Positions 1,790-15,029 of a DNA stretch of 15,029 nt are shown here, in pieces. Source of the DNA: a virus (taxonomy: Duplodnaviria; Heunggongvirae; Uroviricota; Caudoviricetes); the IMG/VR virus record IMGVR_UViG_2565956714_000007, positions 1 to 15,029 of that record. The stretch is one strand, 5' to 3'. Position 1 is the stretch's first letter, and each line of letters starts with the position of its first letter. The translations under genes were made by a program, and so were the position numbers. The notes beneath the pieces are model-generated. The model was not told where the DNA came from. It saw only the letters and a list, made by a program, of their open reading frames with translations, and ran no database searches.

Positions 1790-1952
1790 CGTCTTCTTCC
1801 TCGTGCATCGAGCTATTCGGATCGCTCATCAGTTCTGCGCAGCAGTGCTCACACACGTGAACTTCCAGCACATGCAGCTTCTGACCGCAGTTAGCGCACG
1901 TTAAAGCTCGCTCGACACTTCCTTGTTCGTAACTTCGATTTTGGTCAATCAC
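1782..1952 (-). CDS. ninF: NinF-like small zinc-binding protein (56 aa, GTG start)
   Basis: Hand translation of the minus strand gives [56 protein letters not shown], close to lambda NinF as I recall it. Absent from the ORF track because it is under 60 aa. GTG start overlaps the ninE stop (GTGA) and the stop overlaps the ninG start. Confidence 0.7.
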
Positions 1953-2131
1953 CTTGTTTTCCTCGCACGTTCTCTAAGCCACCGGATATCCCACAGGTGA
2001 GCCGTGTAGTTGAAGGTTTTTACGTCAGATTCTTTTGGGATTGGCTTGCGTTTATTTCTGGAGCGCTTCGTTGGAAGGTATTTGCAGTTTTCGCAGATGA
2101 TGTCGGTGATACTTCGTCGCTGTCGTCTCAT
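1949..2131 (-). CDS. ninE: NinE-like protein (60 aa from an internal Met of the 80-aa track ORF)
   Basis: [60 protein letters not shown]. Starting at this Met gives a 60-aa product with an ATGA overlap onto the ninB stop; the longer N-terminal extension would overlap ninB heavily. Confidence 0.65.
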
Positions 2132-2568
2132 GCCGCCCTGTCTCCCCATCGCGCTTTCCACTCCAGAGCCAGTCGCGCTTCGTCTGACCACTTAACGCCA
2201 CGCTCTGTACCGAATGCCTGTATAAGCTCTAATAGCTCCGCAAATTCGCTTACACGCATCCTGCTGGTTGACTGGCCTATTACCACAAAGCCATTCCCGG
2301 CAAGGTTAGGAACAACGTCCTGCTGCTTTAATGCTGCTGTAAAAACGCACTTCCAGCTTTCTGCATCCAGCCAGCGACCATGCCATTCAACCTGACGAGA
2401 GACGTCACCAAGGCAAGCCCAAAGCTTTCGATTCTGGTCTAAGCTGCGGTTGCGTTCCTGAATGGTTACTACGATTGGTTTGGTTGGGTCTGGAATGATT
2501 TGCTGTACTGCGTGAATAGCGTTCTGCTGATGGATGTGGCTTCTTAGTTCAAACGTTAGTTTCCTCAT
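2128..2568 (-). CDS. ninB: NinB (Orf-family recombination mediator, 146 aa)
   Basis: Length identical to lambda NinB (orf146). RBS GGAG 8 nt upstream of the ATG. Followed directly by ninE/ninF/ninG; ninC and ninD are absent. Confidence 0.85.
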
Positions 2569-2785
2569 GGGATGAACTCCAGTTTGCGATGTTAAATTCC
2601 CATTTAATTACCTTTGCATACCCAATTTTGAACCCATCAATACCTATCCACCGATTGCCACTCCAATAAGCTGTACCACTTTGCTTGAAATGATGTGGAT
2701 GCCTAGATTGAGTGGTCACAGTTACAGGTAAATATGGCTTCGGGTATTCCCCATTCCCTGGATAACCAGATTTAATTTTGCTCAT
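2549..2785 (-). CDS. Hypothetical protein (78 aa), AT-rich accessory gene
   Basis: ORF with RBS GAGAGGG before the ATG and an ATGA overlap with the upstream 108-aa gene. Visibly more AT-rich than the flanking nin genes. No recognisable motifs. Confidence 0.5.
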   Translation of the reverse strand: MSKIKSGYPGNGEYPKPYLPVTVTTQSRHPHHFKQSGTAYWSGNRWIGIDGFKIGYAKVIKWEFNIANWSSSHEETNV

Positions 2786-3108
2786 TGATACCCTCTCTCA
2801 CTTAATCGCGCCCACGCTTCGTTAAACTCTTCTCGGGTTGCGCCGGATTTTCTTTCTTCAAACATCATGCATTCGCTGATGTCTCCCCATGACTTTGGTC
2901 GCTTTTCAGCGAACAGATCATCCCATTCGAATACCCAGCGTCCTGATTTTCGGTAGTGGTAAATGGTCAGCCATGTTGTGCTGTTCGCTGGATACCCATA
3001 GAGAACTTCGACTTTTTGATCACGGTCTTTATGCTTTTTCAGCAGGATAAAGCCAGCAACCAGCGAAGCTCCGGCAAGAATGATGATTGGAATTTGCCAG
3101 TCAGCCAC
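2782..3108 (-). CDS. Hypothetical membrane-anchored protein (108 aa, GTG start)
   Basis: N-terminal hydrophobic helix (IPIIILAGASLVAGFILL) followed by a charged soluble domain. RBS GGGAG/AGGGAAG upstream of the GTG. Occupies the ninA position between ren and ninB. Confidence 0.5.
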   Translation of the reverse strand: MADWQIPIIILAGASLVAGFILLKKHKDRDQKVEVLYGYPANSTTWLTIYHYRKSGRWVFEWDDLFAEKRPKSWGDISECMMFEERKSGATREEFNEAWARLSERGYQ

Positions 3109-3122
3109 ACTTCCCTCTCCCC

Positions 3123-3155
3123 CAAATAAAAAGGCCTGCGATTACCAGCAGGCCT
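3123..3155 (-). terminator. Intrinsic terminator-like hairpin downstream of ren (minus-strand sense)
   Basis: 8-bp perfect stem AGGCCTGC/GCAGGCCT (3132-3139 / 3148-3155) with an 8-nt loop, followed on the minus-strand transcript by TTTTTATTT. Confidence 0.6.
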
Positions 3156-3180
3156 GTTATTAGCTCAGTGATGTAGATGG

Positions 3181-3471
3181 TCATTGCCTTACCTCCATAA
3201 GCGCCCTATTAATAAACGCCGTCATTGGATTTGCACATCCCCACCCCGTACCATCTGGATTTCTTTTAATTGGCTCCTTCTTCACTTTGCGTTTTGCATA
3301 AATAACCGTCTTCCACTTACGCTCAACAACACTCAAATGTCCTTGTTTCACCATATGCCTTGCTGCTTGAGCGATTCTGTTATTTGGTATTCCGGTGATC
3401 AGTGCTAATTCATGTGGGGAGAATTGTTCATGAGTTTTCAGATATTCCAGGATGATTTCTTTTCCAGTCAC
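3181..3471 (-). CDS. ren: Ren-like protein (96 aa)
   Basis: Same length and MTGKE start as lambda Ren, with scattered similarity to my recollection of the lambda sequence. ATGA overlap with the upstream DnaC-like gene. Lies between the replication genes and the nin region. Confidence 0.65.
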   Translation of the reverse strand: MTGKEIILEYLKTHEQFSPHELALITGIPNNRIAQAARHMVKQGHLSVVERKWKTVIYAKRKVKKEPIKRNPDGTGWGCANPMTAFINRALMEVRQ

Positions 3472-4313
3472 GATCTGCTCCTGTAACTATCCCATGTAAA
3501 CGCAAGAGTGCACCCGCCGCCATCATTCATCCTGTCAATAACACGCTCACCAATGAATGCAGACAGTTCATCTTTGCTCTGGTTGCTAATCAGGATTGTT
3601 GGCTTCATGCGCTCGTAGCGGGTGTTGATGATTTCGAACATGATCATCTTTTCCGCCTCGCTTCCAAACTGCACACCAACCTCATCGATAATTAGCAGGT
3701 CAGGTTTAGTGAACTGTCGGATCACTTCATCCTCTGTGCGGGTGGAGTTTTTCGACCATGTTGATTTATATTCTCTGGCAATTTTCAGCGCCGTTGTGAA
3801 AATAGCTGAGCTTTGATGTTCCGTAATTGCGTGCCGGGCGATAGCCAGTGCAAGATGATTCTTTCCAGTACCAGGCTTTCCACACATAACCAGCCCACCG
3901 CCTTTCTGTAACCTCTCAGGCCATTTGCTGGCGTATGCCTGACACACCCTGAGCACTCTCTTTGCATCGTCGTTGACTGGCTCGTAGTTCTGTAGTGTGC
4001 AACCCTTGAATCGTTCAGGAATATCAAGATTATTCAACAGAAACTCGACATTGCGCTTACGTGATTCCTCGTCGATTTTAATCTTCTCTGCCTGTAGCCG
4101 AATAAGCTCATCTCTCATGCATTCCGGGCATTCGCTAGGTCTTGAGGCAAACTTAATTGGCCCAGTCGAGTAACGGTTACGCTGCTCAAACTCACCATGT
4201 TTTTCACAGATGCCAGTGCCAATTTCTACAGATGTATGCTCGATAGCAATTGGCGGAGAACTCAATTCTGCAAGTTTTTTCTCCAGTTGGGAGATCTTTT
4301 CATCCAGCGTCAT
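3468..4313 (-). CDS. DnaC-like helicase loader / IstB-type AAA+ ATPase (replication protein P functional analogue)
   Basis: Walker A GKPGTGKNHLA, Walker B LLIIDEVG and a downstream arginine region typical of DnaC/IstB. Start placed at the second ATG (MTLDEK...), which has GGAG 6 nt upstream and sits 2 nt after the O stop; the track ORF extends to 4331. Confidence 0.85.
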   Translation of the reverse strand: MTLDEKISQLEKKLAELSSPPIAIEHTSVEIGTGICEKHGEFEQRNRYSTGPIKFASRPSECPECMRDELIRLQAEKIKIDEESRKRNVEFLLNNLDIPERFKGCTLQNYEPVNDDAKRVLRVCQAYASKWPERLQKGGGLVMCGKPGTGKNHLALAIARHAITEHQSSAIFTTALKIAREYKSTWSKNSTRTEDEVIRQFTKPDLLIIDEVGVQFGSEAEKMIMFEIINTRYERMKPTILISNQSKDELSAFIGERVIDRMNDGGGCTLAFTWDSYRSRS

Positions 4314-4315
4314 GT

Positions 4316-5158
4316 TCACTCCTGCGCCCATGAAGGCATTTCAGTTTGTCCGTAATCTTTGGTGGCAAAGTTTTCCTGCATAGCTCGATGCTGCGGCCTC
4401 GGTTGAGATTTCCCCTTTGGAGTCTTGGGCTCAAAAATCCCCTGCCAACCACTGGCGATGCTCTGGTTTATAATTTCTTCAGGTGTATATCCCTTCTCCA
4501 GACTTCTGCTTAGAACGTTGATAGCCTGAGTGACACTTTGCTTAGACTTGATCGACTTACCTATCTCCTTGCGATAGGTAACCCACGACAACCATGTTTC
4601 TGCTGATAACCAATCAGGCAACTCTGTTTCTAGCGGGTCGAACTTCTGAGAAACTTTTTTGGGGGATATAGGGGGTTTATTAATATTTTCTTTTGTCTTT
4701 AAAGAATGTCTTTTGTGTGTCTCTAACTTCGAGACATTGAGTGTCTCTAATTTGGGGACATTTTTTGTCTCTAACTTCGAGACAAAGTTGCTAACTTGGA
4801 GACACTTGCTGAATTGCCACGCAGATACCTCACTGTTTACACCGATTTGATTTCCATCCATAAACAGGCAATTCATTGAAATCAGTTCTTTTTTAGCCTT
4901 GTTAACATTCTGCCTTGACAGTCCTGTTAACTGAGCAATTTGCTCATCGGCTATTCGATCTGTTTTCTTATTGAATCCATATGTTTTCCGGACGTAGGCC
5001 AGCATAACTTTCAACTGGCGAGCGGTTAAATCGGCACTTGCGATAGCTTCCAGCAGCTCGTTAGCGAATCTGGTGTAACCATCATCGATATCAGCCACTC
5101 TTCGCTCCTGTTCAACAGGTTCACTCTTCGGCAGGTAAAATACTTCAGCAAGGCTCAT
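4316..5158 (-). CDS. Replication initiator, lambda O-like, with ori iterons inside the coding sequence
   Basis: N-terminal region resembles the phage O N-terminal DNA-binding domain. The central part of the protein (VSNFVSKLETKNVPKLETLNVSKLET) is encoded by the DNA iterons. Start placed at an internal Met (MSLAEV...) with RBS GGAGG; the track ORF extends to 5191 and would overlap the upstream gene by 47 bp. Confidence 0.8.
   Translation of the reverse strand: MSLAEVFYLPKSEPVEQERRVADIDDGYTRFANELLEAIASADLTARQLKVMLAYVRKTYGFNKKTDRIADEQIAQLTGLSRQNVNKAKKELISMNCLFMDGNQIGVNSEVSAWQFSKCLQVSNFVSKLETKNVPKLETLNVSKLETHKRHSLKTKENINKPPISPKKVSQKFDPLETELPDWLSAETWLSWVTYRKEIGKSIKSKQSVTQAINVLSRSLEKGYTPEEIINQSIASGWQGIFEPKTPKGKSQPRPQHRAMQENFATKDYGQTEMPSWAQE
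4718..4804. repeat. Origin of replication: four ~19-bp iterons at ~24-bp spacing, followed by an AT-rich segment (4676-4716)
   Basis: tgtctctaacttcgagaca (4718-4736), tgtctctaatttggggaca (4742-4760), tgtctctaacttcgagaca (4766-4784) and a degenerate copy gttgctaacttggagaca (4787-4804). Each is an inverted repeat TGTCTC...GAGACA. Architecture matches lambda ori inside O. Confidence 0.8.
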
Positions 5159-5789
5159 TTCCAACCTCCGCATCAAAGCATTGGGCTTCAAGAGACTTAA
5201 CCATCACCACACTGCCATCTGTATTAATAACTATCGATGAGTTATATTTGCTTATCAGTTGCTTCGCGTAATCAATTCCGGCGCGAATAAGGAAATTTTT
5301 CACCGCAGGAAGATGACCAACTACACTACCCAGACCTTGCTCTATAAGCTCCTCATTAAGATCAAGCTCATTTTCATGGCGAAAAGAAATGAATGAGTCG
5401 TAAATTGCGTATTCTGCCGTCTCGCCATTTCTTTCAGGGCCAACCAGCGCCCTTATTTCATTTAGAGATTCAGAAAGATCATTATCTTCAAGCTTGAAAA
5501 ACTCTCGATTATCACTAAGCCTCTCTTTTGCAAAGGCTTTATGAATGAGTTTTTCATCTGATGCGGGATTATTTGAATGAAAGGCTGCTATCACCTTAAA
5601 TGGCTTAGGAACGCCAGTAGAGGCTGAAATTTCTTTAGCCCTAACTTCTGGTGAATGCTTAGTCATCCCAATCTTATAAATTCCTGGCATGCACTCATTC
5701 GAAAGCACATAAACAAAGCCATTTGATTTAAAATCATCTGGCACCTTCATGCTCTTCAGAACCTGGAATTTGTCATTTTCGTATGTCAT
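5145..5789 (-). CDS. GIY-YIG-like (T5orf172-type) domain protein, 214 aa; accessory gene inserted between cII and the O-like gene
   Basis: N-terminal GFVYVL...PGIYKIGMT...R..E....P...IH..F...R...REFF pattern matches the T5orf172/GIY-YIG-like nuclease fold; C-terminal ~110 aa unassigned. Strong RBS AGGAG 6 nt before the ATG. Visibly AT-rich relative to cII and O. Confidence 0.7.
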   Translation of the reverse strand: MTYENDKFQVLKSMKVPDDFKSNGFVYVLSNECMPGIYKIGMTKHSPEVRAKEISASTGVPKPFKVIAAFHSNNPASDEKLIHKAFAKERLSDNREFFKLEDNDLSESLNEIRALVGPERNGETAEYAIYDSFISFRHENELDLNEELIEQGLGSVVGHLPAVKNFLIRAGIDYAKQLISKYNSSIVINTDGSVVMVKSLEAQCFDAEVGNEPC

Positions 5790-5823
5790 AATTACTCCTG
5801 TGGATTGATCCAGTCTTTCTACA

Positions 5824-6105
5824 TCAGGCCTCGAAGAATTCGCCGTTCTTCGGGGCTTTTTCTTTTGTCAGGTAATTGGCAAGCCGCTTAGTCAGCTCAG
5901 CCATTTCATCGTCTTCGATTCCGTATTCCAGAACAGCCAGCATCATGCTTACCTGCGAGAAGAAACCATTCTTCCATCGGCTTACCTGATATTCAGGAAC
6001 CCCCATTGCTCGAGCGAATGTCTTCTGCCCCATCAGTGCCAGTTTGTTCAGCAAGGCTGACTCGATGCGAGCCGCTTTCTTGCTTTTAGTTGCAATAGTA
6101 CCCAT
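5824..6105 (-). CDS. cII: CII transcriptional activator (93 aa)
   Basis: Strong similarity to lambda CII (RIESALLNK...SRWK...MLLAVLEYG...DDEMA). RBS AAGGA upstream. Immediately downstream of nutR and cro. Confidence 0.85.
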   Translation of the reverse strand: MGTIATKSKKAARIESALLNKLALMGQKTFARAMGVPEYQVSRWKNGFFSQVSMMLAVLEYGIEDDEMAELTKRLANYLTKEKAPKNGEFFEA

Positions 6106-6112
6106 AGATAAT
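6080..6112 (+). promoter_or_regulatory. Candidate PRE-like CII-activated promoter (TTGC-N6-TTGC box plus -10 GATAAT), antisense to cII/cro and directed toward cI
   Basis: TTGC (6080-6083), ttttag, TTGC (6090-6093) on the plus strand within the first codons of cII, exactly where lambda PRE sits; GATAAT at 6107-6112 is about 17 bp beyond the -35 position. Confidence 0.55.
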
Positions 6113-6181
6113 TTCCTTAATGATTAGATAGAGTTGGCTTCGCAAAGAAACGCAAAACCATAGAGATTTGTTTCTGGTAAT

Positions 6182-6213
6182 GCCCTTTTTCAGGGCGGGG
6201 ATGTGTAAGAGCG
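6182..6213 (-). promoter_or_regulatory. nutR (boxA + boxB) N-utilisation site
   Basis: Minus-strand boxA CGCTCTTAC (6205-6213) followed by boxB hairpin GCCCTGAAAAAGGGC (6182-6196), matching lambda nutR as I recall it; between cro and cII. Confidence 0.8.
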
Positions 6214-6221
6214 TTAATAAC

Positions 6222-6452
6222 TTAAGCGGCCATTAATTCAGGCCAGATGCTTTCCCAATCAACCGGATGAAGGTCTTTGCGAGTCACTTCACCATTGCTG
6301 AACTTCTCAATCAGAACACAAAGTGCTGCGCCCAATTCATGATTACGGCTAAGTGCTTTCCTCAAATAGCCGATAGAAGTTCCGCACTTGGTGGCAAATT
6401 CTCTCTGCTCTTCCAGTGAAAGGGAGTTCAGATACAAGCGGAGTTCTTCCAT
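6222..6452 (-). CDS. cro: Cro-like HTH repressor (76 aa)
   Basis: First gene of the PR operon, divergent from cI. HTH-like segment QREFATKCGTSIGYLRKAL. RBS GGGAAGGAG upstream of the ATG. Confidence 0.7.
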   Translation of the reverse strand: MEELRLYLNSLSLEEQREFATKCGTSIGYLRKALSRNHELGAALCVLIEKFSNGEVTRKDLHPVDWESIWPELMAA

Positions 6453-6484
6453 TTGCTATCTCCTTCCCGTTGTTGAATAAGATG

Positions 6485-6554
6485 AGTTTACCTGTAGGTA
6501 AAAAGCAAATCAATACCCATAGGTTATTTACCGGCAGGTAATCAAAGATAGAAT
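6485..6554. promoter_or_regulatory. OR region: divergent PR (toward cro) and PRM (toward cI) with repressor operators
   Basis: 12-bp operators of form TACCT-NN-AGGTA: TACCTGTAGGTA (6489-6500) and TACCGGCAGGTA (6529-6540), with a degenerate palindrome between (6514-6526). PR on minus strand: -35 TTGATT (6508-6513), 17-bp spacer, -10 TAAACT (6485-6490). PRM on plus strand: -10 TAGAAT (6549-6554) placed so the transcript would start at or near the cI ATG; no SD before cI, suggesting a leaderless mRNA as in lambda. Confidence 0.65.
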
Positions 6555-6560
6555 TAAATC

Positions 6561-7247
6561 ATGGATAAATACGAACAAAGACGACTAAGGCTGATAGAGA
6601 TAAGAGACCGATTCTGTAATGGAAAGGCCTCAGAGTTGGCTCGTCGAATAGAAAGGGAACCATCATACGTTTCCAGAATGCTGTATCCGGAAGGAAAAAG
6701 CGGAAAAAAACGCATTGCTGACGATATGATGGAACTAATTGAAAAATCTTTTAATCTCCCACGCGGATGGATGGACATGCTTGCAGATGGTAAAGCTGGA
6801 GCTACGGACCATCTTGAGTTTGCGGGTAACGTTCGTGCGGGTTTTGTTCCGGTAATTGGTGAAGCCGTTTTGGGAGTTGATGGCTCAGTGGATATGATTG
6901 AATTCAGATCCGGTTGGTTAAGCATCTACAGCGGCGATAAAGATGCTTACGGTCTGAAGGTTAAGGGTGACAGCATGTGGCCAAGGATTCAGTCAGGAGA
7001 ATATGTTGTTATTGAACCAAATACGCCAGTACATCCAGGTGATGAAGTCTTTGTAAGGACCAAAGACGGTCACAACATGATAAAGATCATGAACAAAACA
7101 AGAGACGGTGATTATCAGTTTAGTAGCATAAACAGTGATCACCGCCCAATCACTCTTCCTGTTGAAGAAGTTGATAAAATGCATTTTGTTTCAGCTATTG
7201 TGAAACACACCAGGTACGTAGACCAGGACGATCTGCCAAAAGTTTGA
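6561..7247 (+). CDS. cI: CI repressor (HTH N-terminal domain plus LexA/S24-type autocleavage domain), 228 aa
   Basis: C-terminal S24 peptidase-like region (GDSMWP... with a downstream Lys). Divergent from cro across an operator region. No SD upstream. Confidence 0.9.
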   Translation: MDKYEQRRLRLIEIRDRFCNGKASELARRIEREPSYVSRMLYPEGKSGKKRIADDMMELIEKSFNLPRGWMDMLADGKAGATDHLEFAGNVRAGFVPVIGEAVLGVDGSVDMIEFRSGWLSIYSGDKDAYGLKVKGDSMWPRIQSGEYVVIEPNTPVHPGDEVFVRTKDGHNMIKIMNKTRDGDYQFSSINSDHRPITLPVEEVDKMHFVSAIVKHTRYVDQDDLPKV

Positions 7248-7261
7248 GGATAAAGCAGCAA

Positions 7262-7558
7262 ATGTTTATACCCGGCATAGTAGTCGCTGTTGTAATCATC
7301 TGCTTCATATGGGCAAAGTTATCTCCTGTAAGCTCTAAGCATACAGCTGAACTCATGAGGAAGAAGAATCTTATACATGAGGCAGAATCGATAATTAAAA
7401 AGTTCAAAGGCATGTCATACGACGACATGTCATCAGAGCAGATTGCTATGTATAAATGCGCCATTGAGCGCCTTGACTACTTAAACGGACTCAAACCCAA
7501 ACACACCCCAGTAGAATCAAAATTGCCGCAATGGCCAAGCAATCCAAATAGCTTCTGA
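7262..7558 (+). CDS. Small membrane protein co-transcribed with cI (98 aa from ATG 7262; track ORF begins at TTG 7244)
   Basis: N-terminal TM helix (FIPGIVVAVVIICFIW) then a charged soluble domain. RBS GAGGA ~11 nt before the ATG. Lies between the cI stop and the immunity terminator, the lambda rexAB position. AT-rich. Confidence 0.55.
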   Translation: MFIPGIVVAVVIICFIWAKLSPVSSKHTAELMRKKNLIHEAESIIKKFKGMSYDDMSSEQIAMYKCAIERLDYLNGLKPKHTPVESKLPQWPSNPNSF

Positions 7559-7569
7559 CATCTCCTTTC

Positions 7570-7592
7570 AGCCCGCAAAGCGGGCTTTTTTA
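7570..7592 (+). terminator. Rho-independent terminator ending the cI operon
   Basis: Stem AGCCCGC/GCGGGCT with loop AAA, followed by TTTTTTAT. Confidence 0.8.
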
Positions 7593-7655
7593 TATCAATC
7601 CAAAAAATTAATTACCTGAAAATTCAAGCAGGTAAACTCTCACATCAATTTTATT

Positions 7656-7696
7656 TACCTACAGGTATAGACATGGGTTTTACCTGTAGGTATATT
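7656..7696. promoter_or_regulatory. OL operators and PL promoter
   Basis: Operators TACCTACAGGTA (7656-7667) and TACCTGTAGGTA (7681-7692), centres 25 bp apart, same family as the OR sites. PL candidate: -35 TAGACA (7668-7673), 17-bp spacer, -10 TATATT (7691-7696). Transcript start ATCAGCAGGACGCACTGACC matches the lambda pL leader from memory. Confidence 0.65.
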
Positions 7697-7736
7697 TTAA
7701 GCCATCAGCAGGACGCACTGACCACCATGAAGGTGA

Positions 7737-7767
7737 CGCTCTTAAAAATTAAGCCCTGAAGAAGGGC
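7737..7767 (+). promoter_or_regulatory. nutL (boxA + boxB)
   Basis: boxA CGCTCTTAA (7737-7745) and boxB hairpin GCCCTGAAGAAGGGC (7753-7767), matching lambda nutL as I recall it. Confidence 0.85.
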
Positions 7768-8035
7768 AGCATTCAAAGCAGAAGGCTTTGGGGTGTGGTG
7801 AAGCCAGCTAGTCACTGGCAAGTGCTTACCTACTGTTGAGCGGTGAAGCGCTCCCAATGCTAGCAATAGCGTGGACGAGATGGGGAGCCGCGGGCGATAA
7901 GGCCGCCATAACGCGCACGTTGTCGCATGGAAAAATCGCTGGGGTGCCGGTTATACCCCTCCGAATGAGACTCAACAAGCTGGAGCTAGACTACCAGCCA
8001 CCACACCACCAAAGCTAACTGACAGGAGAATCCAG

Positions 8036-8368
8036 ATGGATGCACAAACACGCCGCCGCGAACGTCGCGCAGAGAAACAGGCTCAATGGAAAGCAGCAAA
8101 TCCCCTGTTGGTTGGGGTAAGCGCAAAACCAGTTAACCGCCCTATTCTCTCGCTGAATCGCAAACCGAAATCACGAGTAGAAAGCGCACTGAATCCGATA
8201 GACCTTACAGTGCTGGCTGAATACCACGAACAGATTGAAAGCAACCTGCAACGTATTGAACGCAAGAATCAGCGCACATGGTACAGCAAGCCACGCAGTG
8301 AAATGGGTGTGACATGCTCAGGCCGCCAGAAGCGACGCGGAAAATCAATTCCAGCTTATTACGATTGA
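8036..8368 (+). CDS. N: Antitermination protein N (110 aa)
   Basis: MDAQTRRRERRAEKQAQWKAANPLLVGV... is essentially the lambda N arginine-rich motif and body; only the C-terminal tail differs. RBS AGGAGAA upstream. Downstream of PL/nutL. Confidence 0.9.
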   Translation: MDAQTRRRERRAEKQAQWKAANPLLVGVSAKPVNRPILSLNRKPKSRVESALNPIDLTVLAEYHEQIESNLQRIERKNQRTWYSKPRSEMGVTCSGRQKRRGKSIPAYYD

Positions 8369-8376
8369 GGTGAGCC

Positions 8377-8541
8377 ATGCTCAAGAAAGTCAAACGCCGA
8401 CTTTACAAAGAAGGTAGATATTCATGCCAATTGCCAAAATGCGACACAACAAAATGGAGTGTCGATGATTGGTGTAACTGGATAGATAGATACGGAACTT
8501 GGTGGGAACGTATTTATTTTCGCGGCAAACCACTTATTTGA
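8377..8541 (+). CDS. Hypothetical small Cys/Trp-rich protein (54 aa)
   Basis: Hand-translated ORF MLKKVKRRLYKEGRYSCQLPKCDTTKWSVDDWCNWIDRYGTWWERIYFRGKPLI with RBS GAGGTG 5 nt upstream. Below the ORF-track length cutoff. Confidence 0.4.
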   Translation: MLKKVKRRLYKEGRYSCQLPKCDTTKWSVDDWCNWIDRYGTWWERIYFRGKPLI

Positions 8542-8549
8542 GGTGAGAT

Positions 8550-8801
8550 ATGGAATTTCATGAAAGTGCGATTTGTGATTTTCGCGCTAACGCAAATTCA
8601 GTAAAACCACAGCCAATTGCAGTTCTTTTTAAAACAATGGGTGCGTGGGCTGTTTTATGCTTCGCCGCTGATGACACTGACGCAAGAATGGCAATAGGCC
8701 AAGAGATGGAGATGGACCCGACAAACGATGAATTCATAATTTATGGCGCTCCATCTAATTACTTACTTGATACCTGCAACATTTACAACAAGGCTGCCTG
8801 A
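8550..8801 (+). CDS. Hypothetical protein (83 aa) in the pL operon
   Basis: ORF with RBS GAGGTGAGAT before the ATG, the same RBS context as the preceding small ORF. No recognisable motifs. Confidence 0.5.
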   Translation: MEFHESAICDFRANANSVKPQPIAVLFKTMGAWAVLCFAADDTDARMAIGQEMEMDPTNDEFIIYGAPSNYLLDTCNIYNKAA

Positions 8802-8860
8802 TGGTGGCCTTTATTTTTTAGCCGTAAATAATTTCATGCTTATTACAATCAAGGTGATAT

Positions 8861-9226
8861 ATGGAAGAACAAGCAAACAAGATTCTCGTAGAACTACTGC
8901 AAAAAGCCAGCAATGGAATAGACGCGGCTGTTTCATTTAGCCAGGCACAGATTCCTGATGTCATCCATCAGCTTTTGATGTGGCACGCCGTATCATCAGC
9001 TGGAATTCAGGCTATCTGTGTATTGGTGATTATAGCGTGTGTTTATCTGATGATTTTTGCATGGAATAAAGGAGATGATGCAGATATTGTTCTTTTATCA
9101 CTACTTGTTACATCAGGAATAGCGATTACTTCTATTGTTGTTTTCTTCAATTATTTCGACTGGCTGAAAATTTGGCTGGCCCCAAAACTTTACCTTATCG
9201 AATATGCAGCATCATTGGTTAAGTAA
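8861..9226 (+). CDS. Two-TM small membrane protein (121 aa) in the pL operon
   Basis: Two hydrophobic helices (AGIQAICVLVIIACVYLMIFAW and IVLLSLLVTSGIAITSIVVFFNYF). RBS AAGGTG before the ATG. Lies in the N-to-cIII interval where lambda carries sieB/ral-type accessory genes. Confidence 0.6.
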   Translation: MEEQANKILVELLQKASNGIDAAVSFSQAQIPDVIHQLLMWHAVSSAGIQAICVLVIIACVYLMIFAWNKGDDADIVLLSLLVTSGIAITSIVVFFNYFDWLKIWLAPKLYLIEYAASLVK

Positions 9227-9375
9227 TTTCAGGCCGCATAATCGTCCTTTATTTTTGGCATAAACAACAGAATAAACACTGCACTGTGTATTCATTCCAA
9301 CGAGTGAATACACGGAGCAATGTCGCTCGTAACTAAACAGGAGCCGACTTGTTCTGATTATTGGAAATCTTCTTT

Positions 9376-9399
9376 GCCCTCCAGTGTGAGGGCCTTTTT
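9376..9399 (+). terminator. Intrinsic terminator-like hairpin upstream of cIII (tL-type)
   Basis: GCCCTC (9376-9381), loop cagtgt, GAGGGC (9388-9393), then CTTTTTA. Expected to be read through under N antitermination. Confidence 0.55.
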
Positions 9400-9465
9400 A
9401 TATGCATACCAATAACGCTTCACTCGAGGCGTTTTCGTTATGCAATCAAATATAAGGAGTTACCC

Positions 9466-9600
9466 ATGATGCACTTTCAGCTCGCGGGTAGCGGCGTCAT
9501 GTCCGCTTTCTACCCGCACGAATCTGAATTATCACGCCGAGTTAAACAATTAATTAGAGCAGCAAAGAAACAACTGGAGGCGTTATGCGCAATGAAATAG
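9466..9600 (+). CDS. cIII: CIII-like protein (44 aa; inhibitor of FtsH-mediated CII degradation)
   Basis: MMHFQLAGSGVMSAFYPHESELSRRVKQLIRAAKKQLEAL resembles the lambda CIII amphipathic core (ESLLERITRKLR...) as I recall it. RBS AAGGAG upstream. Start placed at an internal Met of the 79-aa track ORF. Confidence 0.6.
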   Translation: MMHFQLAGSGVMSAFYPHESELSRRVKQLIRAAKKQLEALCAMK

Positions 9601-9737
9601 CCATTAATCACCAGATGCTTCGTGCGGCACAAAACAAAGCAGTAATAGCCAGATTTATTGGTGATTCAAAAATGTGGCTTGAAGCAAATAAAGCGATGAA
9701 ATCAGCTATCAACCTTCCGTGGTATCGCAGGAAATGA
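9585..9737 (+). CDS. Kil-position small protein (50 aa)
   Basis: Hand-translated ORF MRNEIAINHQMLRAAQNKAVIARFIGDSKMWLEANKAMKSAINLPWYRRK with RBS GGAGG upstream. Overlaps the cIII 3' end in another frame, as kil does in lambda. Assignment is by position and size only. Confidence 0.4.
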   Translation: MRNEIAINHQMLRAAQNKAVIARFIGDSKMWLEANKAMKSAINLPWYRRK

Positions 9738-9904
9738 GTTTTACAGATAACTGGTCAGACGAAGAATTCATTCGTCAGATGAAAGAATTAATCGGTAACG
9801 AAGGAGATATTCATGTCACTTGCAACCACAGTGAAGGAGAGCAAGTTACAGAGACGCATGTACACGCAGCAGGCGTTAATGTATCGCCAGAAGGGAGATC
9901 GTGA
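9734..9904 (+). CDS. Hypothetical acidic small protein (56 aa)
   Basis: ATG overlaps the preceding stop (ATGA). Start taken at the internal Met (MSFTDN...) of the 61-aa track ORF. No recognisable motifs. Confidence 0.4.
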   Translation: MSFTDNWSDEEFIRQMKELIGNEGDIHVTCNHSEGEQVTETHVHAAGVNVSPEGRS

Positions 9905-9991
9905 AGGTGTTCGCGTATTTTTAAATGCGGCAAAGACTGAAGTATTAAATCAGCGTTATTTCCTTGGGCCATGTCCATTCTGAGGTGAATT

Positions 9992-10699
9992 ATGGATTTG
10001 AACAAATTCGATGAGCCATTCAGCCCTGAAGATATCGAATGGCGAATACAGCAAAGCGGTAAAACACGCGATGGCAAGGTGTGGGCTATGGTGCTGGCTT
10101 ATGTCACGAACCGGGCAATCATGAAGCGCCTGGACGATGTTTGCGGCAAAGCAGGATGGCGCAATGAATACCGCGATATTCCCAACAACGGCGGAGTTGA
10201 ATGCGGCATATCAATAAAGATTGATTCCGAATGGGTAACCAAATGGGATGCTGCTGAAAACACGCAGGTAGAAGCCGTCAAAGGCGGTCGTTCCGGTGCA
10301 ATGAAGCGCGCTGCCGTTCAGTGGGGAATCGGTCGGTATCTGTATAACCTTGAGGAAGGTTTTGCACAAACATCTCTCGATAAAAAGCAGGGATGGCACA
10401 GGGCAAAACTCAAGGATGGAACAGGATTTTACTGGCTCCCTCCATCGCTGCCGGGATGGGCAATCCCAGCATCAGATAACAAACCATCACCAGAAAATAC
10501 CAACCAGAAATCTCCATCGGTTGACTGCGAACAAATCCTGAAAGACTTCAGCGATTATGCGTCAACAGAAACTGACAAGAAAAAACTCATCGAGCGTTAT
10601 CAGCGTGACTGGCAATTAATGGCTGGCAACGAGGAGGCGCAGGCTAAATGCGTTCAGGTAATGAACATCAGAGTTAACGAACTAAAACAGGCGGCATAA
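9992..10699 (+). CDS. Rad52/Rad22-family single-strand annealing protein (235 aa)
   Basis: Collinear Rad52-type pattern: ...GW...(20)...G.ECGISI...AAEN...GGRSGAMKRAAVQWGIGRYLYNL. RBS GAGGTGA upstream. Directly followed by ssb. Confidence 0.75.
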   Translation: MDLNKFDEPFSPEDIEWRIQQSGKTRDGKVWAMVLAYVTNRAIMKRLDDVCGKAGWRNEYRDIPNNGGVECGISIKIDSEWVTKWDAAENTQVEAVKGGRSGAMKRAAVQWGIGRYLYNLEEGFAQTSLDKKQGWHRAKLKDGTGFYWLPPSLPGWAIPASDNKPSPENTNQKSPSVDCEQILKDFSDYASTETDKKKLIERYQRDWQLMAGNEEAQAKCVQVMNIRVNELKQAA

Positions 10700-11173
10700 A
10701 TGGCAAGCAGAGGCGTAAATAAGGTGATCATTATTGGTCGCCTTGGGCATGATCCAGAAATCAGATATTCACCATCAGGAACGGCATTTGCAAACCTTAC
10801 CGTTGCTACGTCAGAACAATGGCGTGATAAGAAAACTGGAGAGCAAAAGGAGCAGACGGAGTGGCACCGCGTGGTAATGAGCGGGAAACTGGCAGAAATT
10901 GCCAGCGAATATCTGCGAAAAGGCTCTGAGGTTTATCTTGAAGGCAAATTGCGGACAAGAAAATGGCAGGATCAAAGCGGACAGGATCGGTTCACTACCG
11001 AAGTCATCGTGGGCGTTGGTGGAACCATGCAAATGCTTGGTGGCAAGCAAGGAGGCAATGAACAGTCTTCACCTCAGCGAAATAATGGTCAGCAACAAAG
11101 ACAGCAACCTCAGCAGCAGGGAAATCACAGCGAACCACCTATAAACTTCGACGATTCGGATATTCCGTTCTAG
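10700..11173 (+). CDS. ssb: Single-stranded DNA-binding protein (157 aa)
   Basis: OB-fold N-terminal region ([17 protein letters not shown]...WHRVV), Gly/Gln-rich linker and acidic C-terminal tip DDSDIPF. Confidence 0.9.
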
Positions 11174-11182
11174 GAGCTGAAT

Positions 11183-11662
11183 ATGAAAATCTGCTCAAGA
11201 TGCCATCAACCGAAGGAAGAAAGGGACTTTCAAATCAGAAGAGCATCCAGAGATGGATTAACTGCCGCTTGCCGGGCTTGCCTGGCTGAATATGACAAAG
11301 AGCGCGCGGGATTGCCACATCGAGTATCAGCAAGGAGAGAATATCAATCATCGGAACGCGGCAGAGAACGGTGTAACGCAGCCAAAAAGCGGTTCATTCA
11401 GAGCAACCCATGGAAAAGAAAAGCCCACATCATCGTGGGTAATTTTTTGCGCGACGGTAAGCTAATCCGACCACCACAATGTGAGTGCTGCGGATCAGAA
11501 TGTAAACCACAGGCGCACCACTGCGACTACAGCAAACCAACCGATGTGATGTGGCTCTGCAAGTCATGTCATGTCGAGTGGCACAAACATAACAAACCTA
11601 TCTACCCAGACGAGGAGCCAGTAACTCTCCCCTTCCCTCGTCACGCTATTCACGCAATTTAA
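11183..11662 (+). CDS. HNH endonuclease-like zinc-binding protein (159 aa)
   Basis: N-terminal CxxC...CxxC zinc ribbon. C-terminal HNH-type motif CECCGSECKPQAHHCDYSKP...WLCKSCHVEWHKH. RBS AGGAG upstream. Confidence 0.7.
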   Translation: MKICSRCHQPKEERDFQIRRASRDGLTAACRACLAEYDKERAGLPHRVSARREYQSSERGRERCNAAKKRFIQSNPWKRKAHIIVGNFLRDGKLIRPPQCECCGSECKPQAHHCDYSKPTDVMWLCKSCHVEWHKHNKPIYPDEEPVTLPFPRHAIHAI

Positions 11663-11670
11663 GGACTTAC

Positions 11671-12219
11671 ATGAATCACTTGATGGTTGACCTTGAAACA
11701 ATGGGCAACGGGCCATACGCGCCAGTTATTTCTATTGGGGCGGTATTCTTTGACCCGAATACCGGAGAAACAGGAGAAGAGTTCTCGGTAAATATCTCGC
11801 TTGAATCATCAATGCGATATCGAGCGCGTCCTGACGCTTCAACGATTTTATGGTGGCTGGAACAGAGTGAAGAAGCCAGGAAATCGCTAACCAGCAACAC
11901 TCAGGAGCTTTCAACGGCTCTTTCATGGTTATCTGAATTCATCATAAAGAACGCTAACCACAAATTCGTTCAGGTTTGGGGGAATGGAGCATCATTTGAC
12001 TGCGTTATTCTCCGCAACAGTTATTCGCTGACAGGGCAGCCAGTTCCGTGGCAGTGGTGGAATGACCGCGACGTAAGAACAATCGTCGAACTTGGGAAGG
12101 CAATAGGATTCGACCCTAAGCGAGATATGCCATTCAAAGGAACTCGCCACAACGCTCTTGATGATGCCATTCACCAAGCCAAATACGTTTCAGCGATCTG
12201 GAAAAAGTTAGCTAAATAA
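11671..12219 (+). CDS. DnaQ-like DEDDh 3'-5' exonuclease (182 aa)
   Basis: Exo I motif MVDLETMG, Exo II motif GNGASFDCVIL and Exo III motif HNALDDAIHQAKY, in order. RBS AAGGA upstream. Confidence 0.8.
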   Translation: MNHLMVDLETMGNGPYAPVISIGAVFFDPNTGETGEEFSVNISLESSMRYRARPDASTILWWLEQSEEARKSLTSNTQELSTALSWLSEFIIKNANHKFVQVWGNGASFDCVILRNSYSLTGQPVPWQWWNDRDVRTIVELGKAIGFDPKRDMPFKGTRHNALDDAIHQAKYVSAIWKKLAK

Positions 12220-12235
12220 TCAACAGGAGAAAACC

Positions 12236-12532
12236 ATGCCAGCGCCTCTGTATGGTGCGGATGACCCGCGCCGCTGTTCCGGCAATTCCGTATCGGAGGT
12301 GCTGGATAAATTCAGAAAAAACTACGACCTGATAATGTCTCTACCGCAGGAAACGAAAGAGGAAAAGGAATTTCGCCACTGTATATGGCTTGCAGAGAAA
12401 GAAGAACGCGAGCGAATTTACCAGACATCAATCCGACCATTCCGCAAAGCCACATATACCCACTTCCCTGAATATATCGACCCGCGCCTGCGTAATTACC
12501 GCTCACGCTATGGCGCTATCAGTAATGACTGA
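12236..12532 (+). CDS. Hypothetical protein (98 aa)
   Basis: ORF with RBS AGGAGA before the ATG. No recognisable motifs. Confidence 0.5.
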
Positions 12533-12542
12533 GGAATTTACC

Positions 12543-12710
12543 ATGAGAGGACTTGCATACAATCCCGGCATTCTTCCGGCAGAAATGATTATTCGCCAAC
12601 GCGTAAAGCCAATGCCATCGAGAGAGGAATTGCTTAAGAGAAAGAGTTTCGGTTCTGTTAATGACAACAAATATCTGAATGCGATGTTGCGCAAAGGAGG
12701 CAACCGGTGA
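12543..12710 (+). CDS. Hypothetical protein (55 aa; internal start of the 106-aa track ORF)
   Basis: ATG preceded by RBS GAGGAA. The upstream part of the track ORF overlaps the 98-aa gene in another frame and lacks an RBS. Confidence 0.4.
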
Positions 12711-12840
12711 CTGGACATGCAGCGATCCTCGACATGTGCTGTGGCAGTCGCATGTTCTGGTTAGATAAGAATGACGAACGGGCGAGATAAGCGATCGGTT
12801 AAGTGCTATAGTAATGCGCTTTTGTATTTATGGAGTGAAT

Positions 12841-13539
12841 ATGAAAAATATCCTACTGGCATCATTGTTAGTGGCATCGCCGGGTGCATTTGCAGCCAGC
12901 TTTGACTGCCAAAAGGCTTCGACAGCAATCGAACATAAAATCTGCGATAACGAACGTCTGTCAAAATTAGACGAACAGCTTAGCTCTGCCTATTCTAGTG
13001 CCCTCAAAGAAAACCCAGAGAACGCAGACACCATAAAAATGGTTCAACGTCAGTGGGTAAATATGCGTGGAAAACTCACTGATAATAAGGCTCTGGAGCT
13101 GGCTTATCTTATCCAAATTAATGGCCTCAAAGGTTTGGGGAGTTCAGTCAGCGTAACAGCGGCCAATGAGATACCCACGTCGACGCAGAAACATTCTGAA
13201 GAGCAGGAAGAAACAAGTAAGGCAGAAGTTAAGTCGGTCAAGAACGGCAATAAGCTAACCTTAGAGTCATTCCGAGCTAAATATGTAGAAGTAGATGGTG
13301 AGTATTACAGCACGACATCCATTCCTAGAGGCAGTTCGTTCTTGTTCACTTGCGCCAGTCGTATTGCTGATGACCAAGTGAATGTTTGGAAGAAACATGC
13401 AGCCAAAGAGGGCAAAATCGACCTATTCTTTGAGGTTGAGAATCACTTACACACTGCTATGTTGAACGCCAATTTCCAGAAGTTGAATTCAGACCCTGCC
13501 AAAAGAGGTATTTGTAATCTGATTAACGCAGTGCCGTAA
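12841..13539 (+). CDS. Secreted DUF1311 (LprI N-terminal-like) domain protein, 232 aa with signal peptide
   Basis: Signal peptide MKNILLASLLVASPGAFA. DUF1311-like motif FDCQKASTAIEHKICDNERLSKLDEQLSSAY...QRQWV. RBS GGAGTG before the ATG. Start taken at M10 of the track ORF. Followed by a hairpin. Confidence 0.7.
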   Translation: MKNILLASLLVASPGAFAASFDCQKASTAIEHKICDNERLSKLDEQLSSAYSSALKENPENADTIKMVQRQWVNMRGKLTDNKALELAYLIQINGLKGLGSSVSVTAANEIPTSTQKHSEEQEETSKAEVKSVKNGNKLTLESFRAKYVEVDGEYYSTTSIPRGSSFLFTCASRIADDQVNVWKKHAAKEGKIDLFFEVENHLHTAMLNANFQKLNSDPAKRGICNLINAVP

Positions 13540-13549
13540 GTAAATTTAG

Positions 13550-13580
13550 GGCCACAGTTGTGGCCTTAAATATTTTTTCA
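13550..13580 (+). terminator. Terminator-like hairpin after the secreted-protein gene
   Basis: GGCCAC (13550-13555), loop AGTT, GTGGCC (13560-13565); the T-run TATTTTTT begins ~9 nt later, so this is a weaker terminator. Confidence 0.4.
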
Positions 13581-13745
13581 GCCTTTTCTTATTTGTAATA
13601 AGCAGTACTTAGTAGTGCTTATAAAACAGAATAAAAAACATATGACTTTGGCGATTACCCAGTAAAGATATTCGAAATAAATGTAAATATCGGCAATGAA
13701 TAACAATCCTCGCACTCGCGGGGATTTCTTTTATATGGGGATAAT

Positions 13746-14546
13746 ATGACCATCCACTTTCACGGCAGCCCAATATGGGGGGATGAGCATGCCCCTACAG
13801 ATATGCTGATTAAAGCCCTTTACCGTGATGGTGGGGCTTTTGTTTCATTTGCCAGACCAGAGCAGATGAAAAAGATTGCCATGTTCCCTTGTGATATACG
13901 CCTTGATAACGGTGCTTTTAGCGACTGGATGAAAGCATTAAAGAAAGGCACTCCGGTAGACTGGAGTAAGAGACGAGCAAAATTCTACGACTTTGTTGGG
14001 AAGTGGTTCAGCAGAATTGAATGGTTTCTTATACCTGACGTTATCGAAGGGACAGAGGCAGAAAACGACGAGCAGATTGAGTTGGTTCCTGATTGGCTAA
14101 AATCAAAAGCGGTTCCGGTCTGGCATACCGACGAATCAATTGAACGTCTTTTACGCCTTTCTAGCAAATTTGAATGGGTGGCGATTGGATACTGCGGACC
14201 ACACAGGCACATACGCTCTAAATGGTGGGAACAGAGAATGGATGAAGTTTTCACTGAGCTTTATATCAATCGTAATTTGAAAGTGAAAATTCATGGTCTT
14301 CGAATGCTCGACGTGAGAGTTCTTGGTATGTATCCGTTCGCCAGTGCGGATTCTACTAATGTTGCTGTTAACGTACCGAAGACAGAGAAGCGATTTCCTG
14401 AGATTACCGACAAACTGGCACGCACAGCTGTACTTCGCGCTGCTATTGAAAAGGTGCACCCGCCATCGATATCAGCATGGGTAGACAGAAAGATGAGAGA
14501 GCCGGCGCAAGCCGGTTTTTTATTTGAATTCACCGACGCCGCTTAA
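13746..14546 (+). CDS. Candidate TGT-superfamily (DpdA-like) transglycosylase, 266 aa; standalone accessory gene
   Basis: Collinear resemblance to the TGT catalytic motifs: LDNGAF (cf. DSGGFQ), FLIPDVIEG (cf. IFDEC), WVAIGYCG (cf. YAVGGLAVG), KIHGL (cf. MGVG), FASADSTNV (cf. FDCVMPTRN). No C-terminal Cys/His zinc site. Own AT-rich upstream region with a 25-bp palindrome and a downstream terminator. Family call is from by-eye motif matching only. Confidence 0.45.
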   Translation: MTIHFHGSPIWGDEHAPTDMLIKALYRDGGAFVSFARPEQMKKIAMFPCDIRLDNGAFSDWMKALKKGTPVDWSKRRAKFYDFVGKWFSRIEWFLIPDVIEGTEAENDEQIELVPDWLKSKAVPVWHTDESIERLLRLSSKFEWVAIGYCGPHRHIRSKWWEQRMDEVFTELYINRNLKVKIHGLRMLDVRVLGMYPFASADSTNVAVNVPKTEKRFPEITDKLARTAVLRAAIEKVHPPSISAWVDRKMREPAQAGFLFEFTDAA

Positions 14547-14565
14547 TGCGGATTTCTTTTATCTG

Positions 14566-14590
14566 AACTCGCTACGGCGAGTTTTGTTTT
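14566..14590 (+). terminator. Rho-independent terminator after the 266-aa gene
   Basis: AACTCGC (14566-14572), loop TACG, GCGAGTT (14577-14583), followed by TTTTGTTTT. Confidence 0.7.
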
Positions 14591-14603
14591 ATGGAGATGA
14601 TAA

Positions 14604-14771
14604 ATGCACTTCCGAGTAACAGGTGAATGGAATGGAGAACCATTCAACAGAGTTATCGAAGCAGAGAACATCAACGACTGCTATGACCACTGGATGCTGT
14701 GGGCGCAGATGGCACATGCAGACGTAACCAATATTCGAATTGAAGAACTGAAAGAACACCAAGCCGCCTGA
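14604..14771 (+). CDS. Hypothetical small protein (55 aa)
   Basis: Hand-translated ORF MHFRVTGEWNGEPFNRVIEAENINDCYDHWMLWAQMAHADVTNIRIEELKEHQAA with RBS GGAG before the ATG; ends inside a terminator hairpin. Confidence 0.4.
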   Translation: MHFRVTGEWNGEPFNRVIEAENINDCYDHWMLWAQMAHADVTNIRIEELKEHQAA

Positions 14772-14784
14772 TGGCGGTTTTTTA
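14764..14784 (+). terminator. Rho-independent terminator upstream of xis
   Basis: CCGCC/GGCGG stem with loop TGAT, followed by TTTTTTATT. Confidence 0.7.
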
Positions 14785-14828
14785 TTGCCTGATTTGCAGG
14801 TTCGATTCCCTATTCGGAGATAGCACTC

Positions 14829-15029
14829 ATGCAACACGAACTACAACCTGATTCACTGGTTGATTTGAAATTCATCATGGCTGATACTGGCTTCGGTAAA
14901 ACCTTCATCTACGACCGGATTAAGTCCGGCGACCTGCCAAAAGCCAAAGTTATCCACGGGCGAGCAAGATGGTTATATCGTGACCATTGTGAATTCAAAA
15001 ATAAGCTCTTAAGCCGCGCCAATGGGTAA
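14829..15029 (+). CDS. xis: Excisionase-type small DNA-binding protein (66 aa); integrase expected just beyond the window
   Basis: Small basic protein with a winged-helix-like segment (FIMADTGFGKTFIYDRIKSGDLPKAKVIHGRARW). Sits at the end of the leftward operon where xis precedes int. RBS GGAGA upstream. Stop at the window edge. Confidence 0.65.
   Translation: MQHELQPDSLVDLKFIMADTGFGKTFIYDRIKSGDLPKAKVIHGRARWLYRDHCEFKNKLLSRANG

Follow-up and report, generated by a model that had tools for sequence, protein, structure and literature searches.

Results

The DpdA-type gene of the window

The window analysed here is the whole 15,029-nucleotide (nt) stretch formed by positions 1 to 15,029 of IMG/VR record IMGVR_UViG_2565956714_000007 (Caudoviricetes), which scans of its open reading frames (ORFs) identify as the early region of a lambdoid Escherichia coli prophage. 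Near its right end lies a plus-strand gene for a protein of 266 amino acids (aa), whose membership of the phage DpdA branch of the tRNA-guanine transglycosylase (TGT) superfamily is, from the sequence and profile comparisons given below, near certain. The start codon is fixed by the N-terminus MTxH[YF]HGxPIWG that the homologues have in common, and a Shine-Dalgarno-like motif precedes it (Table 1). An earlier sequence-only reading of this DNA had proposed a TGT- or DpdA-like enzyme on the basis of five TGT-type motifs, and all five lie at the residues it named, far beyond what chance would give. It had also noted the lack of the zinc subdomain and of queC, queD, queE and folE: the only cysteines of the protein are C49 and C150, with no Zn motif, and the ORF scans of the window detected none of the four genes. 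The window has no importer of the VUT/YhhQ type either.

The novelty implied by that reading does not hold. Gp29 of phage HK106 (YP_007151699), encoded at the same genomic site and identical to the window gene at 98% of amino acids and 97.6% of nucleotides, is named 'queuine tRNA-ribosyltransferase' in RefSeq and is listed in Supplementary Data 1 of a survey of phage 7-deazaguanine modification (Hutinet et al. 2019, Nat Commun 10:5442). It appears there in the 'third group', 76 phages that have DpdA and no synthesis genes ('DpdA-only') and that were proposed to use host 7-cyano-7-deazaguanine (preQ0) or imported precursors. The window gene is a member of an already catalogued family, not a new one; a literature search on singleton and lambdoid DpdAs, covering HK106, prophages and temperate phages, gave nothing beyond the 2019 listing and no later work on this clade.

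Family assignment by sequence and profile

The window protein matches PHROG 887, 'queuine tRNA-ribosyltransferase', with an E value of 1.4e-101, and the same PHROG also takes the DpdA of phage 9g (2e-98), the MS1/Dp-1-type DpdA (6e-68) and the DpdA of Salmonella phage 7-11 (7e-74). Aligned by hhalign with the family of 9g DpdA1, a profile built from 36 homologues reaches 97.1% probability (E 6e-11, 147 columns) and pairs D54, D98, H127, H183 and D202 of the window protein with D72, D114, H141, H196 and D215 of 9g, and a profile of 114 representatives at 50% identity reaches 99.0% (E 7e-18). By tblastn, the window protein finds MS1 DpdA at E 3e-4 and is found in reverse at 1e-4, and MS1 finds 9g at 4e-26. 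The family comprises 2,227 clusters at 90% identity and 1,826 at 50% identity (E <= 1e-3), and the contexts of all relatives inspected are phage or prophage.

General databases say little. Searches of Pfam, NCBIfam and PADLOC gave no match for the window protein or for the 36 family members beyond noise-level hits to TatD, the Pfam TGT and DpdA models gave none for the window protein even at E <= 1-10, and searches of PDB sequences and profiles returned only chance matches, whether they started from the protein, from its family profile or from a combined DpdA profile. Alignment by hhalign with the single sequence of E. coli Tgt was insignificant and out of register, and the validated 9g family was equally insignificant. 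MS1 DpdA, used as a control, reaches the Pfam DpdA model at E 0.001 only and nothing in the PDB by sequence. Because the controls fail too, these negative results carry little weight.

Predicted structure and conserved residues

An AlphaFold2 model made from the family alignment (predicted local distance difference test score 90.7) has eight alternating strand-helix units, that is, the TGT-like (β/α)8 barrel, or TIM barrel, expected of a phage DpdA. The conserved residues lie at or just past the C-terminal ends of strands 3, 4, 5, 7 and 8, which in the model is the catalytic face of the barrel. Foldseek against the BFVD database returned 27 matches at E <= 1e-3, of which all the named ones are phage queuine/queuosine tRNA-ribosyltransferases; unrelated folds appear only after a gap below them. 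Unrelated TIM barrels come close in score (14.0 for PdxJ) and dominate the Foldseek search of the PDB, so that the fold alone is supportive, not conclusive. The profile comparisons and the Foldseek matches in the viral library favour the TGT/DpdA-like assignment, as do the reciprocal tblastn matches with MS1 and the YhhQ/VUT, QueD and methyltransferase context described below. The order and spacing of D54/N55, D98, H127 and H183/D202 agree with those of D95, D130, H181 and D256 in bacterial DpdA and also with those of D73/S74, D122, K154 and H226/D248 in Cap10.

D54, D98, H127, H183 and D202 are kept in 115-116 of 116 full-length homologues and are invariant or at least 90% conserved among the 114 representatives at 50% identity. 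The clade additionally has invariant residues of its own, H4-x-H6-G7, N55, N107, R186, D189, R226, E235 and PP239-240. The H-x-H-G motif (codons 4-7) is specific to the clade, being absent from the DpdA of 9g and of MS1, and in the model it is part of strand 1, a neighbour of the catalytic strands; it resembles the metal motif of amidohydrolases, and no similarity to TatD or YcfH was seen. Measured against HK106 and against more distant alleles, the ratio of nonsynonymous to synonymous substitution rates (dN/dS) comes to 0.07-0.3, which argues that the protein is maintained by purifying selection.

Salmonella phage 7-11 DpdA is 57-58% identical to the window protein. As deposited, gp032 of that phage (234 aa) starts at the equivalent of window residue 21 (...LIKALYR...), and tblastn carries the match upstream to window residue 10. 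Comparison of the sequences suggests that the true start probably lies upstream of the deposited one, which would cut away strand 1 and the HxHG motif in it.

A presence/absence cassette in the lambdoid backbone

Comparison of the window with phage ev099 (L018), lambda (L019) and HK106 (L001) by blastn shows that the DpdA-type gene is a discrete presence/absence cassette of 828 base pairs (bp). Lambda and ev099 are collinear with the window here apart from lacking it: in them the two segments of the window abut with a 13-nt overlap and the backbone hairpins stand next to each other (...GCGGGGATTTCTTTTAT joined directly to CTGAACTCGC...). In the window a 13-nt direct repeat bounds the cassette, and its left copy overlaps the 3' arm of the upstream backbone hairpin.

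The gene had been described as its own unit, with a 25-bp near-perfect palindrome upstream and a clean terminator downstream. Both elements are real, and neither belongs to the gene. Phage ev099, which has no DpdA gene, keeps the palindrome with one substitution and retains both hairpins, which places palindrome and terminator in the backbone and not in the cassette; lambda, also without the gene, retains both hairpins too, and the insert holds no promoter. The palindrome is found in an AT-rich spacer (32% GC) after the LprI-like gene; a repeat finder gives it wider, 26-nt arms at 77%, and two palindromes of such kind were observed in the window against 0.28 expected. The only terminator-like element that does belong to the cassette is a hairpin within the last 50 nt of the coding sequence, where it encodes ...EPAQAGFLFEF; the ...EPAQAGFL... 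stretch over it is kept in close homologues. This hairpin may be the end of the cassette transcript, or a relic of the origin of the cassette.

A scan for sigma-70-like promoters found none between 13540 and 13745, and only 11 nt of the insert precede the ATG, so that the cassette carries no promoter; a promoter of the gene's own was rejected on these two grounds. By analogy with established lambda biology, the transcript of the N-antiterminated pL operon most likely includes the gene.

The complete gene is present in 67 of 5,426 complete E. coli genomes (about 1%), and the flanks in 2,649. Truncated E. coli copies of ~150 aa, 97-99% identical, were also seen: in part of the population the cassette is in decay.

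Neighbours and fusions of the relatives

The neighbourhoods of related genes were surveyed in 79 viral loci, which form 31 lineages at 90% identity, by searching their ORFs with reference proteins. In 15 of the 31 lineages the DpdA-type gene is abutted, on the same strand, by a gene for a short VUT protein, a polytopic membrane protein of ~155 aa and roughly four segments that belongs to the YhhQ/VUT family, is found in PHROG 4899 ('unknown function') and scores 35-37 bits against Pfam Vut_1 (cutoff 27.2). In locus L003 the VUT stop and the DpdA start overlap as ATGA. VUT is missing from the clade of the window itself (26 loci at >=97% identity), and the reference-sequence search detected no QueC, QueD, QueE or FolE within 6 kb in the 79 loci. 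Among more distant relatives, QueD is adjacent in Caulobacter phage DMCA and VUT/DUF165 genes are near in Pam5 and RHph_X2_30.

In three lineages the DpdA-type protein is fused to phage Dam (PF05869), and there are single cases of fusion to a D12-class DNA methyltransferase, to an N6_N4 DNA methyltransferase and to QueD/PTPS. The methyltransferase moieties, from three Pfam families, are of the DNA N6-adenine type, which argues for DNA as the substrate, and the linkage to QueD and VUT argues for a 7-deazaguanine as the co-substrate. YhhQ is the preQ0 transporter of E. coli (Zallot 2017). The 2019 survey found YhhQ homologues uncorrelated with the phage groups (Hutinet et al. 2019). The half-size VUT proteins were possibly missed in that survey, which would account for the absent correlation. 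Their recurrent position next to dpdA suggests that the two genes form an import-and-insert module.

Two other neighbours were noted. Three related E. coli prophages have a gene for a 354-aa protein with a DndB/DGQHR domain (Pfam DndB, E 4e-46) some 2 kb upstream of their DpdA gene. The ATPase that bacterial DpdA needs, DpdB, is DndB-like; a role as a DpdB-like partner was rejected, the gene being considered incidental given this distance and its restriction to these three prophages. Prophages with VUT and a DpdA-Dam fusion have, directly downstream of the gene for the cI-like repressor, one for a 535-aa protein with a SIR2_2 domain, probably a prophage-borne defence gene.

Other genes of the window

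All sizeable ORFs scanned are lambdoid early-region genes or belong to an unannotated phage family. On the minus strand are Q, NinI, NinG, NinB, a DnaC-like loader, an O-like initiator and cII, and on the plus strand a cI-like repressor followed by the pL operon, in the order N, Erf, SSB, endonuclease, Rv2179c-like exonuclease, Abc2, LprI-like, the DpdA-type ORF, a lambda orf55 homologue and a TorI-like excisionase, the last, at the window end, named from the matching RefSeq locus. Between SSB and Abc2, the endonuclease has a Lar-like N-terminal region and its neighbour is an Rv2179c-like 3'-5' exoribonuclease-domain protein.

Table 1. Positions of the features discussed, in the window and in related loci.
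Feature	Sequence	Position	Strand	Remarks
DpdA-type coding sequence	window	13746..14546	+	266 aa; short phage DpdA-type (TGT-fold) enzyme
HxHG motif, codons 4-7	window	13755-13766	+	strand 1
Shine-Dalgarno-like GGGGA	window	13737..13741	+	4 nt before the ATG, within the cassette; read from the sequence
Inserted cassette	window	13735..14562	+	828 bp: ribosome-binding site, coding sequence, one copy of the direct repeat; blastn
Left 13-nt direct repeat GGATTTCTTTTAT	window	13722..13734	+	cassette boundary; exact-match search and junction sequences
Right 13-nt direct repeat GGATTTCTTTTAT	window	14550..14562	+	
Backbone hairpin	window	13705..13726	+	directly upstream of the cassette; also in lambda, ev099 and HK106; not gene-specific
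Backbone terminator-like hairpin and T-run	window	14565..14584	+	before the lambda orf55-like gene; also in lambda and ev099, both without the DpdA gene
Near-perfect 25-bp palindrome	window	13598..13622		11/12 arm pairs; 3' flank of the LprI-like gene
Terminator-like hairpin and T-run	window	14496..14531	+	11-bp stem, -16.6 kcal/mol (14496-14521); terminator scan, RNAfold
Endonuclease, Lar-like N-terminal region	window	11183-11659	+	pL operon
Rv2179c-like exoribonuclease-domain protein	window	11671-12216	+	pL operon
Short VUT, examples	L003	7540-8004		15/31 lineages among L020-L098
	L059	5534-6001		
	L049	5387-5998		
DpdA-type fusion proteins	P0006 (L003)	8001-9383		
	L053, L055, L056/L057, P0245			
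	P0310			QueD/PTPS fusion
DndB/DGQHR-domain protein	L002	13227-14291		354 aa
	L044	3074-4147		
	L068	2969-4042		
SIR2_2-domain protein	L003/L004	791-2398		535 aa
Truncated E. coli copies	L070	4396-4845		~150 aa
	L071	6348-6797		
	P0023, P0018			
7-11 gp032 as deposited	L006	5025-5729		234 aa

Discussion

The reading that we consider likely is a phage DpdA in minimal form: the product would be a TGT-fold DNA-guanine transglycosylase that puts a host-derived 7-deazaguanine into phage DNA. The mechanism that we infer for it follows the chemistry of TGT and of bacterial DpdA. On prophage induction, dpdA would share the transcript of the delayed-early pL operon (N ... erf-ssb-abc2 ... dpdA-orf55-xis), and the enzyme would work on duplex phage DNA, after replication, exchanging guanine by the double-displacement mechanism of TGT: D202, held by H183, would attack C1' of the target deoxyguanosine and expel the guanine, giving an intermediate in which DNA and enzyme are covalently linked, with D54 serving as general acid and then as general base and D98 and H127 recognizing the base. 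Since the window has neither synthesis genes nor a YhhQ/VUT-type importer, the base would come from the queuosine pathway of E. coli, either as preQ0 made by FolE-QueD-QueE-QueC or by import through the host YhhQ, and the clade of the window, judging from its gene content, probably depends on host preQ0. The expected product would be a sparse mark of the deoxynucleoside of preQ0 (dPreQ0) or of 2'-deoxy-7-amido-7-deazaguanosine (dADG), probably motif-specific and not a bulk replacement, and such a mark could shield particular sites from restriction or from other defences that sense DNA.

DpdA1 of Enterobacteria phage 9g and Escherichia phage CAjan (Queuovirinae) is a validated DNA preQ0 transglycosylase of the same PHROG. 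Although it shares only ~18% identity with the window protein, the two have the motif order LD[SN]GAFS, D, PxxH, G-rich strand, KxHG, [SC]xDS in common; like the window protein, 9g DpdA1 has no Zn site, and it works without a DpdB partner in E. coli, where 9g DpdA expressed alone puts preQ0 into plasmid DNA. The 9g protein is longer (317 aa against 266): it is extended at the N-terminus and has a helical region at the C-terminus, both missing from the window protein. It has no HxHG motif; its gene belongs to a folE-queD-queE-(gat-)queC cluster, and the enzyme modifies 25-32% of G. The bacterial DpdA of S. Montevideo (PDB 7UI4) belongs to the Dpd restriction-modification system. It has 413 aa, a structural Zn site (CXCX2CX22H) and four insertions, needs the ATPase DpdB and sits in a 20-kb dpd island; none of these features is shared by the window protein or its locus, and the protein does not match the Pfam family PF23859. 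With TGT itself (bacterial TGT and archaeal ArcTGT, PF01702) there is no significant sequence or profile match, as is also the case for the 9g family, and the window protein has no Zn site, N-terminal beta-sheet lid or tRNA-binding domains; by eye only, H127 corresponds to the position where E. coli Tgt reads Gln, in the IIQG motif. Among DpdAs encoded with a full pathway, the nearest by BLAST is that of MS1 (E 3e-4). In the Dp-1/MS1 cassette, queC-queD-queE-folE-vut-dpdA, VUT lies directly upstream of dpdA, as it does in half of the relatives of the window gene, whereas that cassette has the full synthesis pathway and MS1 has a full-length VUT of 223 aa instead of ~155 aa; the window has no VUT at all. 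MS1 is close kin of Dp-1, whose DNA carries dPreQ1.

Several observations weigh against the reading as a minimal DpdA. The window protein is another allele, without substantial difference, of the gamma-proteobacterial singleton group (HK106 gp29, 7-11 gp032, PEAT2, SEN1, SPN3UB, BTP1 and SfI), which like the window has no que genes nearby and whose members form their own cluster in the 2019 survey, where it was suggested that they may have diverged functionally (Hutinet et al. 2019). The DNA of 7-11 was found to contain dADG at 50 per 10^6 nt (~0.02% of G) and no dPreQ0, and in Orion, a 'DpdA-only' phage of a different clade and host, no modification was found (Hutinet et al. 2019). The short clade is known from sequences and from the DNA analysis of one phage, 7-11; it has the invariant residues of its own listed above, its window member matches no Pfam TGT or DpdA model, NCBIfam or PADLOC entry or PDB sequence, and some E. 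coli copies (L070, L071 and P0023) are truncated.

Part of this evidence would also be accounted for by the main rival reading, a diverged enzyme of the DpdA fold with another job, for instance one that acts on host tRNA or on the lysogen chromosome, that uses another base (7-amido-7-deazaguanine (ADG), 7-carboxy-7-deazaguanine (CDG), preQ1 or queuine) or that is mainly a base-removing glycosylase, with clade residues such as H4-x-H6 giving a new chemistry. The separate position of the singleton DpdAs in sequence networks is in line with such a divergence, and so are the dADG of 7-11, a phage in which no DpdC-like gene is known, the invariant HxHG beside the catalytic strands and the absence from the clade of ~45 N-terminal and ~60 C-terminal residues of DpdA1. 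We nevertheless regard it as unlikely, because the fusions to DNA adenine methyltransferases indicate a DNA substrate and the linkage to VUT and QueD a 7-deazaguanine, and because the entire catalytic constellation of DpdA1 is kept in a protein that has no tRNA-binding or Zn subdomain. The similar spacing of the catalytic residues in Cap10 brings in an enzyme that handles protein-conjugated 7-deazaguanine, as in the type IV cyclic-oligonucleotide-based antiphage signalling system (CBASS), and that does not modify DNA. The Cap10 operon, however, includes the QueC-like Cap9 and a cGAS/DncV-like nucleotidyltransferase (CD-NTase), and the window has neither; no QueC was found within 6 kb in the 79 viral loci, CD-NTases are absent among the Pfam-annotated neighbours, no search having been aimed at them, PADLOC gives no match, and the sequence kinship is to phage DpdA1, which makes a Cap10-like function extremely improbable. 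An unrelated TIM barrel that has converged on the TGT motifs, such as a metal-dependent nuclease of the TatD or amidohydrolase type acting through HxH, is brought to mind by weak Pfam TatD_DNase matches in 3 of 36 family members (best E 0.0086) and by the HxH in strand 1, the His after strand 5 and the Asp in strand 8, which recall the amidohydrolase pattern. The TatD/amidohydrolase reading of HxH was rejected, given that hhalign against E. coli TatD and YcfH reaches only 0.2-7%, over residues 131-184 and not over the motif, when the same profiles reach 97-99% against DpdA1; with the co-membership in one PHROG with validated DpdAs and the context links to VUT and QueD also against it, convergence of this kind is very improbable.

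Alongside a minimal DpdA that inserts host preQ0, a more elaborate and less probable proposal, which we offer tentatively, is that the short singleton clade is no trimmed version of the 9g-type DpdA but a distinct two-part salvage-and-insert system, composed of the half-size VUT and a minimal transglycosylase that is sometimes fused to a methyltransferase or QueD, and that it would write a rare, site-specific 7-deazaguanine mark, perhaps of ADG and not of preQ0. The HxHG site next to the nucleophile could then add a new chemistry or specificity, and the mark could be an epigenetic or anti-defence signal on the DNA of temperate phages and possibly on the lysogen chromosome. The allele of the window would be a derived one, which has shed the importer and relies on the host YhhQ and QueC.

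As far as the assignment is concerned, our analysis rediscovers a published annotation and leaves existing knowledge unchanged; what is new here is the 828-bp insertion with its 13-nt repeats, the backbone origin of the palindrome and terminator, the recurrent short VUT, and the fusions to methyltransferases and QueD. The 2019 survey counts 76 genomes of 'DpdA-only' phages; among phages with 7-deazaguanines no group is larger or less well understood. This gene sits in a readily manipulated lambdoid prophage of E. coli with a natural presence/absence polymorphism. The system is suited to asking whether a temperate phage can hijack the queuosine pathway of its host to mark its own DNA, which base and motif are used, and whether so rare a mark, on 0.02% of G, is enough for protection against restriction or for setting off defences that sense deazaguanines, and the recurrent VUT-DpdA pair and the methyltransferase and QueD fusions supply concrete hypotheses for the family.

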